DNA of 61,826 nucleotides from an uncultured Candidatus Saccharibacteria bacterium (GTDB taxonomy: Bacteria > Patescibacteriota > Minisyncoccia > Phycocordibacterales > UBA2100): assembly GCA_964586255.1 (NCBI GenBank), contig CAZPGE010000006.1, forward strand, positions 1 through 61,826, written 5' to 3'. Each line of letters opens with the position of its first letter. Within the stretch, counting starts at the first letter, position 1. The notes under the pieces were generated by a model, which was not told the DNA's origin, did not search any database, and saw only the letters and a list, made by a program, of their open reading frames with translations. The position numbers and the translations under genes were made by a program. Below, piece by piece: positions 5,652 to 50,530 of this stretch.

Positions 5652-5767
5652 ACGTTTGAACGATAATCGGACTTTAACCGTTGCGGCACAGTGGAGGAAT
5701 TTCACCCCTCTTCCTATTCGCCGTTTCTATTTTGGCGAATTCCCGCTTTCGCGAGACAGTCAAACGT
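5652..5767 (-). ncRNA. Cobalamin riboswitch aptamer (compact, short-P6 type)
   Basis: Minus strand AGGAA-GAGGGGTGAAATTCCTC-CACTGTGCCGCAACGGT-TAAAGTCCGA matches the GGGAA / GGTGNAANTCC / CTG..GCAACNGT / AAGYCNG core. An 8-bp closing stem ACGTTTGA/TCAAACGT brackets it, and it lies upstream of DUF4430 genes. Confidence 0.9.
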
Positions 5768-46108: not shown

Positions 46109-46939
46109 ATGAAAAAGGGTGCGGCGAAGAAAAGCGCAAACAACGGCCCGCGATGGGTTGCAGTTTCCGGTGGTTTCGACCCCATCCACATTGGACATGT
46201 TCGGATGTTCAGAGATGCAAGAAAATATGGCGACAGGCTTGTCGTGATAGTCAACAACGACAACTGGCTCGTGAATAAGAAAGGATATGCGTTTATGCCG
46301 GAGACTGAACGCAAAGAGCTCATCGAGTCGCTCCCTTTTGTAGACAAAGTCGTTCTCACCGACCACAAGCGGGGAGAGAGTGACACGAGTGTCATCCGTG
46401 CGCTTCGCGCGGTAAAGCCTCACATCTTCGCCAACGGCGGGGATAGAAAGAAACTTTCGGATATCCCCGAGGCGGCAGTGTGCCAAGAGCTCGGTATCGA
46501 CATGGTCTTCAATATAGGTGCAGGCGGGAAAATACAATCCTCTTCGTGGATGATTCAGAATGCGAGCAGGCCTGTAAAGCGCAGCGTACGTCCGTGGGGG
46601 GAATACTACGGTTGGGACCAGGGCGGTGGCTGGAATCTCAAGACTATATATATAAAGCCGAAGAGCCGCCTGAGTCTGCAGTATCATCATTTCCGTACGG
46701 AGTGTTGGCTGCTCGTAGAGGGCGATGCGGTCGCTACGGTACACGATACGAAAGGTAAGGTGTCTAAGATTGCCCTCAAAAAAGGTGTCACGCAGTGTAT
46801 AGGGAAGAAACAAGTGCACCGGCTCGAATCAAAGAGGGGCGGTGTCGTCGTCGAGGTTGCATATGGTCGCTTCGATGAAGACGACATTGTTCGGCTGGAA
46901 GACGACCACGGCCGCCCCACAAAGCGGGTGCGCTCATGA
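46109..46939 (+). CDS. Fusion: HIGH-type nucleotidyltransferase (RfaE/TagD-like) + type II phosphomannose isomerase cupin
   Basis: [18 protein letters not shown] and GGKIQSSS; then RPWG.Y, LSLQYH, HRLES and EDDIVRLED. Confidence 0.85.
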
Positions 46940-46952
46940 TAGAATGCCGACC

Positions 46953-49220
46953 ATGACCGCACTCGAGAAGACGCTCAGATGGATTGCACTTGGCGGTATC
47001 TTTGCCCTCCCTTTTGTAGCCCTCATTGTCTCGTCATCCCTCTTTTTTCCCTACATAACCGGTAAGAACTTTGCGTTTCGCATACTGGTAGAAATAACCA
47101 CTGCGGCCTGGCTTGCTCTTGCAATCGTGAACCCAGCGTATCGACCGCGCCGCTCTCTCGTCCTTGGCGCCCTCGCACTCTTTGTATTCATCATAGGCCT
47201 CGCGGATATTTTTGGTGCGTACGCATTCAAGAGCCTTTGGAGCAACTATGAGCGCATGGACGGGTGGGTGACTATCGCACATCTCCTTGCATATACGATT
47301 GCCGCGTCGGCGATGTTGAATACGGAAAAACTATGGCGATGGCTGTTTTGGACGTCGCTCGGCGTGTCAGCCTACCTCTCTCTCTATGGCCTGTTGCAGG
47401 TTACGGGCAAAGTTGCGCTCGGTCTCGGCGGCGTTACGGGACTTAGTGGCCGAATCGACGGTACGTTTGGCAACCCAATTTACTTTGCCGTGTACATGCT
47501 CTTCCACGTCTTTATTGCTGCCATGCTGCTGGGGCAGCAGTGGGTGGAGAAAGGGCCAGGGAAGCGACTCTATATATCCGTAGCATATGGCTCCGTCATT
47601 GTGCTCGATACGGCCGCCCTCCTTCTCACAGGTACCCGCGGAACGATGCTCGGGCTCATAGGAGGTACTTTGTTGACGGCATTCCTCATGCTGATTCTGG
47701 CTCGAAATTCACGCAACGTGTGGCGTGCCTCCGCTGCGGTCGTAGTAGGTATCGTAGCACTGACAGGTATTTTCATGCTGGTCAAAGACCAGGCCTGGGT
47801 GCAGCGTATCGGATTCTTGCAGCGTCTCGCGAGCATTTCGCTTTCGGACCAAACAACCGAGTCTCGCTTTGTGAACTGGTCTATGGCGTGGGAAGGGGTA
47901 AAGGAGCGACCTTTACTCGGATGGGGACAGGAGAACTATGCACTCGTCTTCGACAAGTACTACGACCCACGCATGTACAAACAGGAGCCGTGGTTTGACC
48001 GTGTGCACAACATTGTCTTCGACTGGCTCGTGGCTGGGGGTTTTATGGGACTCTTCTCATACCTCGCAATCTTTGGAGCGGTGCTCTGGGTTCTTTGGCG
48101 ACCGACCGTCGAGGAAGGAAGTACTGAGGCTAGCAAGCCGTACGTGCGATCGGGCGGTTTTACGATTGCAGAGCGAAGCATCCTCACTGGTCTTCTTGCC
48201 GGGTACTTCGTCCACAATTTCTTTGTGTTCGACAACGTGACGAGCTACATCCTTTTTGGCACCATACTTGCGTTTATTGCACACAGATCGTCCAAGGCGT
48301 CAGGCGCGCCCGCTATTCCAGCTTCGCGCCCCCTATCACAGAATGTCCTCCCCTATGTTGCGGTACTCTGCGCGATAGCACTGCTCTTCGCGGCATGGTC
48401 GGTGAATCAGAAGGCGCTTGCAGCGAATCGGCTCTTGCTCAGTGCACTCAATCCACAGAGCGATGCTTTGATGAAGCTTGACGCTCTTCAAAAGTCTATA
48501 GAACTCGGGACGTATGGCATGCAGGAGGCGAGAGAACAGCTCTCACAGATGGCAGCCACGGCGAGTGGCTCTTCTGGTGTGTCCGACGATGTGAAGAAAA
48601 AGTACTTCGAGACTGCTATCAGCGAGATGCAGATGCAGGCGGCGGCGTCGCCGCTCGATGCGAGATTCCCGCTTTTCATCGGCGTTGTGTACTCAGCTTT
48701 TGGGCAGTATGACAATGCGAAAGTCGCCTATGAAAAAGCGCTTGAGTTGTCGCCGAAAAAACAGTCGATCATGTATTTGCTCGGTGAGAATGCGGGCGTG
48801 AGGGGCGATAGCACCACTGCGCTTTCGTACTACAAGCGAGCGTATGAACTCGAGACATCCAACCGCGAGGCCGCGATGCAATATGCCGCTGCTCTTATTC
48901 GCTTGGGCCAATCAACAGCGGCGGAAGCGCTCATCGCTCCGTATATAGAGAGTGGAAACGCTGCGGACCCACGTATCCTCGCTGCGTATCGCGCGAATAA
49001 TCAAATATCTAGAGCGATTCCAATATGGGAAGCAGGAGTTCGCGCCAATCCCGAAGATGTGCAGGGATACTTCACCTTGGCTGCAATCCACTATCTCTCA
49101 GGCAACTCGGCGAAAGCGATTGCGATACTCGAAGATGTAAAGCGCAAATTACCCGGCGTCGCGGTACAAGCCGATCCAGTGATTGAACAAATACGAGCGG
49201 GCACTGCGGTCGTCCAATAA
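46953..49220 (+). CDS. O-antigen-ligase-like (WaaL/PglL, Wzy_C) membrane protein with C-terminal TPR repeats
   Basis: GTFGNP, LLLTGTRG, ERPLLGWG.EN, DRVHN..D.LV..G; TPR-like YEKALELSPKK. Confidence 0.88.
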   Translation: MTALEKTLRWIALGGIFALPFVALIVSSSLFFPYITGKNFAFRILVEITTAAWLALAIVNPAYRPRRSLVLGALALFVFIIGLADIFGAYAFKSLWSNYERMDGWVTIAHLLAYTIAASAMLNTEKLWRWLFWTSLGVSAYLSLYGLLQVTGKVALGLGGVTGLSGRIDGTFGNPIYFAVYMLFHVFIAAMLLGQQWVEKGPGKRLYISVAYGSVIVLDTAALLLTGTRGTMLGLIGGTLLTAFLMLILARNSRNVWRASAAVVVGIVALTGIFMLVKDQAWVQRIGFLQRLASISLSDQTTESRFVNWSMAWEGVKERPLLGWGQENYALVFDKYYDPRMYKQEPWFDRVHNIVFDWLVAGGFMGLFSYLAIFGAVLWVLWRPTVEEGSTEASKPYVRSGGFTIAERSILTGLLAGYFVHNFFVFDNVTSYILFGTILAFIAHRSSKASGAPAIPASRPLSQNVLPYVAVLCAIALLFAAWSVNQKALAANRLLLSALNPQSDALMKLDALQKSIELGTYGMQEAREQLSQMAATASGSSGVSDDVKKKYFETAISEMQMQAAASPLDARFPLFIGVVYSAFGQYDNAKVAYEKALELSPKKQSIMYLLGENAGVRGDSTTALSYYKRAYELETSNREAAMQYAAALIRLGQSTAAEALIAPYIESGNAADPRILAAYRANNQISRAIPIWEAGVRANPEDVQGYFTLAAIHYLSGNSAKAIAILEDVKRKLPGVAVQADPVIEQIRAGTAVVQ

Positions 49221-49249
49221 TTGCGTTGGTAAAAAGGGTGCGTTACAAT
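49221..49249 (+). promoter_or_regulatory. sigma70-like promoter driving the intergenic RNA
   Basis: TTGCGT-N17-TACAAT; the G at 49256 follows 6 nt later. Confidence 0.75.
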
Positions 49250-49255
49250 ACGCTC

Positions 49256-49534
49256 GTGAGTGCCACAAAGTGTGGCTCTTAGATTGAAAGTCGTGCAAGT
49301 ACTCGCCGCAAGGCGGGTATTGCATTTGGACCAGCTGACTATACGCCATCTGCGTTGTTGCGGGCGCCCGAACGCAATTCTCACCGTACGGCTTGTACGG
49401 CTCGAACCGCATTCTGCCCGCGCCTAGCACCTGGCGCATCTCAGCGGACCCAATCCATGCGTTGTCATTGTCGCCGTCAGTGGTACTCTTTGAGTAGCAC
49501 TAAAGGGCGTATTGCGGAGGGCGGCGGCACTCAC
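49256..49534 (+). ncRNA. Unclassified structured ncRNA candidate (~280 nt)
   Basis: Terminal 9-bp stem GTGAGTGCC/GGCACTCAC; long-range ATACGCC/GGCGTAT; GCAA-capped hairpin with G-U pairs on the plus strand; at least four further hairpins; no credible ORF. Confidence 0.6.
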
Positions 49535-49924
49535 ATAAGACTTTCACTTTTTTGGAGCTCGCACCCGTCCTCCGCCATGCGCCTTTGGTGCCCCATTTAG
49601 GGGCACTTTTGCGTAGGCGGGTGCGAGCTCCAAAAAAACGAAGGGGGTCGGGGAAACTGTAGTTTCCCCGTGTAGGAATGTCTTGAAAACCGAGAGGTTT
49701 TCAAAGCAAAGCTTTTTGCGTGCTCGCACCCGTCCTCCGCAATGCGCCTTTGGTAATGCAAAAGGTTGCTCCGGACGGGTGCGAGTCAGCTCGCCCTATG
49801 GCTTTGTTCGCCCGCCTGCTGGCGGACTCACATGCGCATTTCGCTTCGCGAACCGGATGAAAAGCGGTCAACCACTTTTCATTCCTCCGCCATGCGCCTT
49901 TGGCACCCTTAATGGGTGCTTTTA
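49500..49924. repeat. Four copies of a ~20-bp motif CCTCCGCMATRCGCCYTT embedded in hairpin modules
   Basis: Direct copies at 49569-49588, 49734-49753 and 49884-49903; inverted copy at ~49500-49520. 20-bp IR 49548-49567/49618-49637; 13-bp IR 49723-49735/49773-49785. Confidence 0.85.
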
Positions 49925-50207
49925 CATTTCGGTGTGCGGGCGACAAAAAAGAATGTACTGATGTATTCACGAGCTATTTGGAGCGTCACGCTGTATTAAG
50001 AAACTTGAGAGAGACTCTTAAGTGAAAACTCGCTCACATAATATTTCTCAACTCTTTTTTCTCGTTTAAAAAATAAAAAAGTTATCCACATTATTTAAAC
50101 GAAAAACAATTTATTGCGAGCGTGAGTGTAATAATAAATTAAACGCTGTAGCGTTTCGCGCGCGAAGCGAAGGTCGAGTTTAATACTCACAATCATTTAT
50201 AACCACC

Positions 50208-50276
50208 ATGGCAAAGGCAAAAAAGAAGAAGGCCACAAAGAAGAAGACGGCCAAGAAGGCAAAGAAACACCGATAG
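50208..50276 (+). CDS. 22-aa Lys/Ala-rich micropeptide MAKAKKKKATKKKTAKKAKKHR
   Basis: ATG..TAG open frame with an A/T-rich leader, repeated AAG codons and its own terminator; below the ORF-track size cut-off. Confidence 0.7.
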   Translation: MAKAKKKKATKKKTAKKAKKHR

Positions 50277-50289
50277 TATCGGTGTCTAG

Positions 50290-50315
50290 AAAAGACCTCC
50301 GCAAGGAGGTCTTTT
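50290..50315 (+). terminator. Intrinsic (potentially bidirectional) terminator
   Basis: AAAAGACCTCC-GCAA-GGAGGTCTTTT. Confidence 0.88.
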
Positions 50316-50530
50316 CGTTTTCTTTCGCTACCGAAGCGTAGCTTCGGCATCGCTTGTTGAGAGAAAACGAAAAGACGGCCGGAGACGGGGCCCCACCTAA
50401 ATGGGGAGGCGAGGCGGGGCCTGCGCGCGTTCGCAAGTGCGAACGACGTGTGGGCCTTTTCTTTTGATGCCTGAAATATCGCTAGTTCGCGTCAATGGAA
50501 TCAAAGAGACGCGGGTGGTAGGATACGTGG

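Follow-up and report, generated by a model that had tools for sequence, protein, structure and literature searches.

Several kinds of bacterial elements are found at the 3′ ends of genes. Islands and prophages integrated in the 3′ ends of tRNA and tmRNA genes, which Williams reportedly divided into sublocation classes in 2002, are flanked by attL/attR repeats. Bacterial class C group II introns insert just 3′ of intrinsic terminators, and tRNA 3′ trailers can carry functional RNAs, such as 3′ETS-leuZ of E. coli or the tRNA-like 3′ processing signal of the mascRNA type. MITEs and REP/BIME repeats are small, non-coding, hairpin-rich, multi-copy elements, likewise located at gene 3′ ends.

A short repeat of CPR bacteria, termed here element E, shares features with each of these systems and differs from all of them. 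As in the case of the tRNA/tmRNA islands, it is accompanied by a direct repeat of the 3′ part of the host gene, often starting from the T-loop, the gene is left intact, and tandem arrays are possible. However, the insert is only ~100–170 bp long and contains neither integrase nor cargo, the ends of protein genes are used as well, the length of the repeat varies from 13 to 95 nt, and an inverted copy of the target is present at a fixed distance. E resembles MITEs and REP/BIME repeats in the features listed above, but it has no constant terminal inverted repeats (its flanks are long, variable copies of the host gene), is strongly biased towards tRNA and translation genes, is strictly co-oriented with them and shows no association with RAYT. 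With class C group II introns it has in common a terminator-proximal, co-oriented position and pairing between the element and upstream host sequence; unlike them, it is only ~70 nt long, lacks intron domains, requires no RT in the same genome and is associated with duplication of the host sequence. Finally, like the tRNA 3′-trailer RNAs, E (whose function is putative) is a structured RNA placed directly 3′ of a tRNA and followed by a piece that partly resembles a tRNA (T2, see below), but it also occurs behind protein genes, and its flanks, being duplications, are not independent tRNA-like genes. In the best explanation of the locus described below, to which we assign a probability of about 0.7, three copies of an RNA tail represent the sense-strand tail of a conserved RNA and its duplicates, placed beside E, a small repeat at the ends of translation genes.

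The window, i.e. the whole stretch of DNA that was analyzed (61,826 nt), is contig C6 of genome G000, a CPR genome of 861 kb (12 contigs, 99.7% complete). It contains a gene-free stretch of 1.3 kb (49221–50530), flanked by a Wzy_C/TPR gene (46842–49220) on one side and by a 22-codon Lys-rich ORF, followed by secA, on the other. Misassembly of this repeat region, considered as an alternative in the first-pass annotation, is unlikely, since positions 49523–50300 are covered, with 0 differences, by a public contig of the source metagenome. Public contigs were also searched for an invertible DNA switch, and no alternative joints were seen at the locus. Among RNA-seq runs, none contained it. A DnaA-box-like sequence, AGTTATCCACA, is located at 50079–50090, ~100–130 nt 5′ of the Lys-rich micro-ORF (50210–50277), and is kept in at least eight species (relatives L006, L007, L009, L010, L016, L018, L022 and L024). 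In a distant part of the window, the minus strand carries an AdoCbl-II riboswitch aptamer (5658–5726; 37.6 bits, barely above the Rfam gathering score of 36.5).

The upstream part of the gene-free stretch encodes a conserved RNA, all features of which, like those of the downstream repeats, are placed on the plus strand. A promoter read from the sequence, TTGCGT-N17-TACAAT, occupies positions 49221–49249, and its −10 box, 6–7 nt 5′ of GTGAGTGC, recurs in relatives. The 5′ domain (49256–49335), which is kept in at least 11 species, consists of segment X (GUGAGUGCC, 49256–49264), a hairpin, segment Y (GAAAGUC, 49286–49292) and a GNRA hairpin; X and Y have their complements, X′ and Y′, in the 3′ domain. 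The latter comprises arm A (49502–49524), i.e. the 5′ strand of a terminal helix, whose partner is located at 49565–49586, and an invariant core (49526–49564), in which X′ (GGCACUCAC), AUAA and Y′ (GACUUUC) are followed by the single-stranded sequence GGAGCUCGCAC.

A search of 60 relatives showed conservation to be highest, within the region as a whole, from 49502 to 49586: this piece is 88–96% identical within the genus and is also present in other families of the order. It runs without a break from the arm that had been annotated as the RNA's 3′ module through the sequence that had been annotated as the first of its copies. In 19 species, the terminal helix formed by arm A and the sequence at 49565–49586 comprises 22 pairs, with 93.3% of cells paired and with compensatory changes on both sides in 11 of the 22 pairs. 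Such pairing was not reached by any of 500 shuffles, and sliding of one arm reduced it to 42–57%. Because the terminal helix pairs arm A with it, copy 1 is, as judged from sequence comparison, a part of the conserved RNA and not an antisense copy. The helix probably also serves as the RNA's own terminator, since in relatives without further insertions a U-run directly adjoins its 3′ side. The 3′ end of the RNA is consequently placed ~60 nt downstream of the previously assumed boundary, and the RNA, conserved across the genus, is unclassified.

None of the Rfam 15 covariance models gave a credible match to the conserved RNA, to the modules or to E. An identification as RNase P RNA was rejected, as the RF00010 match is located at C10:3040-3373 (107 bits) and not at this locus; tmRNA was also found elsewhere in the genome. 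The SRP RNA models matched neither the locus nor G000, nor any of 13 related genomes, and the 6S RNA model gave no match at the locus or in G000. The order X, Y … X′, AUAA, Y′ along the strand corresponds to the pseudoknot topology of P2/P3/P4 of RNase P RNA, together with its GAAAGUC motif; this is a resemblance only. The variable middle of the RNA contains a second multi-copy structured insert, element M (49340–49446, ~105 nt), for which Rfam has no match. Its paralogue, placed in an intergenic region behind clpP (G000 C2:6939-7040), shows paired changes (CGGGC/GCCCG vs CAGGG/CCCTG), and further copies were detected in G003, G005, G010, G011, G024, G027 and G028. A diversity-generating retroelement (DGR) template/variable repeat was rejected as an interpretation of 49340–49446, which is this structured element with its paired changes.

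The first-pass annotation had described three antisense copies of the RNA's 3′ module on the minus strand, each joined to a different hairpin. The 20-mer on which this description was based, CAAAGGCGCATKGCGGAGGA, does occur on the minus strand at exactly three sites (49568–49587, 49733–49752 and 49883–49902; spacings 165 and 150), and no match was found in 100 shuffled sequences. A genome-wide count, allowing up to 3 mismatches, recovered just these sites and a plus-strand relative at 49502–49520. The adjacent hairpins are also paired as proposed (GTGCCCC/GGGGCAC, 49588–49606; GCACCC/GGGTGC, 49903–49919), the enclosing inverted repeats are real (49543–49567/49618–49642, with the inner 20 bp perfect, and 49723–49735/49773–49785, 13 bp perfect), and the two extra perfect hairpins (49649–49670 and 49683–49704) were found to be the two helices of E. 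Their interpretation, however, required revision. What had been called copy 1 supplies the 3′ strand of the covarying helix with which the RNA itself ends, and copies 2 and 3 are duplicates of the sense-strand tail. TTTT is present 3′ of both hairpins, but these T-runs lie on the plus strand, not on the minus strand on which the modules had been read.

The modules are indeed complementary to arm A, a point in favor of the earlier view, but this complementarity is that of the RNA's own helix; in addition, the 20-mer motif is absent elsewhere in the genome and the T-runs are on the opposite strand. The antisense or decoy reading, in the form in which it was stated, is essentially ruled out, and the wider earlier view, in which the modules are either minus-strand antisense/decoys or REP/MITE-like mobile units built on the 20-mer, is now scarcely credible. 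The impression of an antisense system is artefactual, produced by reading the stem of a conserved RNA, and a possible decoy or alternative-pairing role of the copies would operate in the sense orientation.

The tail itself, T1, occupies positions 49547–49589 and includes the 3′ strand of the terminal helix. It is followed by a terminator hairpin with TTTT (hp1, 49588–49610) and by IR1 (49611–49638), an inverted copy of T1 that is perfect over 20 bp with 49548–49567 and has counterparts in G005, G008, G027, G028 and G030. E (49638–49712) is placed next, and behind it lies T2 (49712–49754), a direct repeat of T1 with 91% identity over 43 nt, accompanied by its own inverted copy, IR2 (49766–49785). 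Further downstream, a decayed copy of the X′-J-Y′ core (GGCGGACTCACATGCGCATTTCGC, 49821–49845) precedes T3 (49883–49903), the second terminator hairpin with TTTT (hp3, 49903–49923) and IR3 (~49930–49951), a degenerate inverted copy with an A-run, at which an E-less unit ends. GC-rich hairpins followed by a T-run on the transcribed strand, typical of intrinsic terminators, are present at 49581–49604 and 49902–49920, in both cases on the plus strand. Since each tail has its own inverted copy behind it (and T1 and T3 also a terminator hairpin), the region is a short tandem series of RNA-tail units. We infer that the window contains (i) a full unit, (T1-hp1-IR1)-E, (ii) an E-less unit, T2-IR2, and (iii) an older, decayed unit composed of the pseudo-core, T3, hp3 and IR3. 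No second E was found between T2 and T3, even with the filters off. T3 lies inside a decayed duplicate of the RNA's entire 3′ domain and is identical to the last 21 nt of T1 (21/21), though the surrounding block is only ~60% identical, which suggests conversion or selection.

The copy of E present in the window consists of a CGAAG linker, GGGGUC, the hairpin at 49649–49670, GUGUAGGAA, the hairpin at 49683–49704 and a GCAAAGC tail. Its positions 49638–49707 also match other sites of G000 and of many relatives, and this ~70-nt sequence scored 80.7 bits (E=1e-20) against covariance model R1. Alignment of 40 copies yielded the consensus GAAG-GGGGUC, an 8-bp hairpin, GUGGAGGAAGG, an optional hairpin and a second hairpin with a ACCGNGGGU tip. 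Compensatory changes were observed at 6 of the 15 consensus pairs, with both hairpins represented, and the unpaired bases are invariant. A small ORF suspected within E (GGAGG-N5-ATG) was rejected, as its ATG is not conserved. The element usually ends with GCGAAGC (window: GCAAAGC, 49706–49712; also L071-L080), and in many lineages GUGAGAU, instead of a T-loop, follows this end. As DNA, GCGAAGC forms a mini-hairpin of unusual stability.

A covariance-model search of evenly sampled Patescibacteria detected E in 31 of 301 genomes, representing 27 of 248 genera, with 1–8 copies in each; G000 contains five. By pattern scan, it was found in more than 120 contigs assigned to named CPR lineages, i.e. 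Jorgensen-, Taylor-, Nomura-, Lipton-, Campbell-, Yonath-, Niyogi-, Staskawicz-, Colwell- and Berkelbacteria, ‘Saccharibacteria’, WS2 and others. Rfam does not contain E, nor do phage collections or IMG/VR, and no description of it was found in the literature, searched by topic and by sequence. The expectation that a small, repeated, structured element is involved at the locus was borne out; nevertheless, the unit repeated in the genome is E, whereas the 20-mer modules, like the GGAGCTCGCACCCG core, are confined to a single locus.

In the first sample, a same-strand tRNA gene was present 26–114 nt 5′ of E in 31 of 67 copies. In an independent sample, selected by the first hairpin of E alone, such a gene was located directly 5′ of 34 of 76 copies, and any isoacceptor may serve as a host. 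The other hosts, confirmed with Pfam, are rpsI (S9, at least 8 lineages), rplL (L7/L12) and fusA (EF-G), in addition to the conserved RNA of the window. The order of the components is the same in nearly every copy: T1, here the 3′ end of the host, comes first and may be followed by a terminator; then come its inverted copy, a 4–9-nt linker, E and a direct copy of T1. With tRNA hosts, the inverted copy corresponds to the T-loop and the 3′ strand of the T-stem, sometimes also to the acceptor strand. In the two samples, the direct-repeat score exceeded the 99th percentile of permuted controls for 33/67 and 36/69 copies, and the inverted-repeat score for 30/67 and 37/69; about one third to half of E copies have no significant repeat. 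The end of the inverted copy is placed 4–9 nt 5′ of GGGGTC in 79 of 87 copies. The T1-IR-E-T2 layout also accompanies the same RNA gene in G005, G008, G028 and G030 (and, without T2, in G027), with IR and T2 tracking the version of T1 specific for each species.

The direct copy can continue through the terminator and the inverted copy, and tandem arrays of whole units occur. In young copies, the duplicated segment comprises 57 nt at L071 (host tail and terminator), ~75 nt at L109 (the end of fusA), 81 nt at L095 (ending inside the inverted copy) and 95 nt at L146 (up to the first base of E). At L078 (69 nt) it extends a few bases into E, as does the ~163-nt unit of G254, which forms perfect tandem arrays behind tRNA-Arg (L090, C2:25850-26650). 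A ~190-bp E-containing unit with its own hairpins is present in G009 at four or more unrelated, dispersed sites (L051/L058/L060/L061). Judging from the sequences, the arrays of G254 and the dispersed units of G009 suggest recent amplification in some lineages. The RNA gene itself is rearranged in sister species: in G005 (L006) and G028 (L010) the 3′ domain and its T1-IR-E-T2 have the opposite orientation to the 5′ domain, and in G025 (L016) the 3′ domain comes first, ahead of a 5′ domain with a promoter of its own. These genes are either broken or encode a two-piece RNA joined by X:X′, Y:Y′ and tail pairing; the repeats appear to drive such rearrangements.

This layout could also be that of a functional RNA module, in which the inverted copy would act as a guide and E as a scaffold, possibly as a new ribozyme or protein-binding 3′ element, that, on read-through transcripts, clamps, processes or regulates the upstream RNA at its 3′ end. 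In that case, T2 and T3 would compete for the inverted copies through the alternative helices A:T1, T1:IR1, IR1:T2 and T2:IR2. Consistent with such a role are the fixed spacing between the guide and the scaffold, the covariation of both hairpins of E with invariant unpaired bases, the coherent set of hosts (tRNAs, S9, L7/L12 and EF-G), the maintenance of E at orthologous sites, where IR and T2 follow species-specific changes of T1, and the perfect conservation of T3 within a decayed block. However, the distribution of E is patchy (~10% of genomes, 1–8 copies), the near-identical tandem arrays and dispersed units (G254, G009) resemble amplification, a match of IR to T2 is far rarer than to T1 (10/67), and Rfam contains no matching ribozyme or riboswitch. 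On balance, we regard a functional module as unlikely. The same assessment applies to a related proposal, that E and its host-complementary arm would constitute a new RNA device (a guide-scaffold or a self-cleaving/processing motif), with an undescribed mobility mechanism behind the duplications.

No gene for an RT or a HUH/RAYT transposase was detected in linkage with the element. RVT_1 is absent from G000 and from 20 of the 31 E-positive genomes, including G254, G137 and G344; as judged against group II introns, retrons and DGRs, no RT is linked to E or present in G000. The weak Y1-like (PF01797) matches of G000 are far from the locus, on other contigs, and Y1_Tnp shows no association with E (PF01797 in 13/31 E-positive and 11/20 E-negative genomes). 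Although RVT_1 genes are more frequent among E-positive genomes (11/31 vs 1/20 of the E-negative ones), as would be expected if RT template switching joined E RNA with abundant host RNAs and the chimeric cDNA then recombined into the host gene, the genomes with the freshest arrays (G254, G137 and G344) are among those devoid of RVT_1. The hosts encode the most abundant RNAs and T2 often starts 3–6 nt into the T-loop, which also fits such a route, but the duplications take in trailer sequence that does not look transcribed, as well as terminators. An origin of this type is therefore considered improbable.

Integration at tRNA genes classically leaves direct repeats of the tRNA 3′ end with a start in the T-loop, and a direct repeat of the gene 3′ end does flank the insert, so the repeats could be duplications of the attL/attR type, the remains of a site-specific integrative element at RNA-gene 3′ ends that later lost its cargo. 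This origin is, however, very improbable. In all ~136 copies the segment between the repeats is just 100–170 bp long and cargo-free, the ends of protein genes are also targeted, E is absent from phage and viral collections, and the target-specific inverted copy is left unexplained. Furthermore, each genome, including G000, has a single Xer-type recombinase and no extra integrase. One copy of E in G000 (C4:1627-1707) lies 1.6 kb from the gene of this only tyrosine (Xer-type) recombinase (C4:3321-3842), which may be a coincidence. Candidates for an autonomous parent element, namely pairs of E placed 0.3–10 kb apart, turned out to be merely separate tRNA loci. REP/BIME repeats form many dispersed short palindromes, whereas the 20-mer and the core have one locus and E five copies in G000; in place of the constant terminal inverted repeats and fixed-length duplication of MITEs, the flanks of E differ from copy to copy and equal the host end (13–95 nt). 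Both an RT-mediated origin and decayed att sites are less likely than template switching or a functional module.

No enzyme is linked to E, and therefore an origin at the DNA level, through template switches at terminator hairpins behind heavily transcribed genes, is favored to account for the duplicated tails beside E, albeit tentatively, as we rate its chances at somewhat less than even. E, as a non-autonomous repeat, would settle at the terminators of such genes. DNA synthesis would (i) fold back on the terminator hairpin, generating the inverted copy, (ii) copy E and (iii) re-enter at the host tail, generating the direct copy. The direct repeats could later recombine, which would multiply the units or delete E and give rise to T2-IR2 and T3-hp3-IR3; the E-less units are the expected leftovers of such events. 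We infer the exact inserted segment, because no empty/filled pair of one site was found in close strains. Because of the fixed spacing and the covariation, the T1:IR helix together with E may also act as an RNA module on read-through transcripts.

Several observations do not fit this explanation well. A target-specific, precisely spaced inverted copy is not obviously predicted by a simple template-switch accident, and about one third to half of the copies of E lack a significant repeat. The presence of E at orthologous sites (tRNA-Lys, rpsI and the conserved RNA) in several species fits both functional retention and old insertions, and the identity of T3 to T1 suggests conversion or selection.

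E is a widespread, apparently undescribed element of CPR bacteria and a mark of the 3′ ends of translation-apparatus genes; its signature is two copies of the host end, one inverted and one direct, at a fixed spacing. If E is selfish, this signature would point to an unusual insertion mechanism. An RNA device, if real, would have as its targets in CPR bacteria the 3′ ends of ribosomal-protein mRNAs, of tRNAs and of a conserved RNA; if functional, E would give these organisms, whose genomes are minimal, a common module for 3′ control or processing in the translation machinery.
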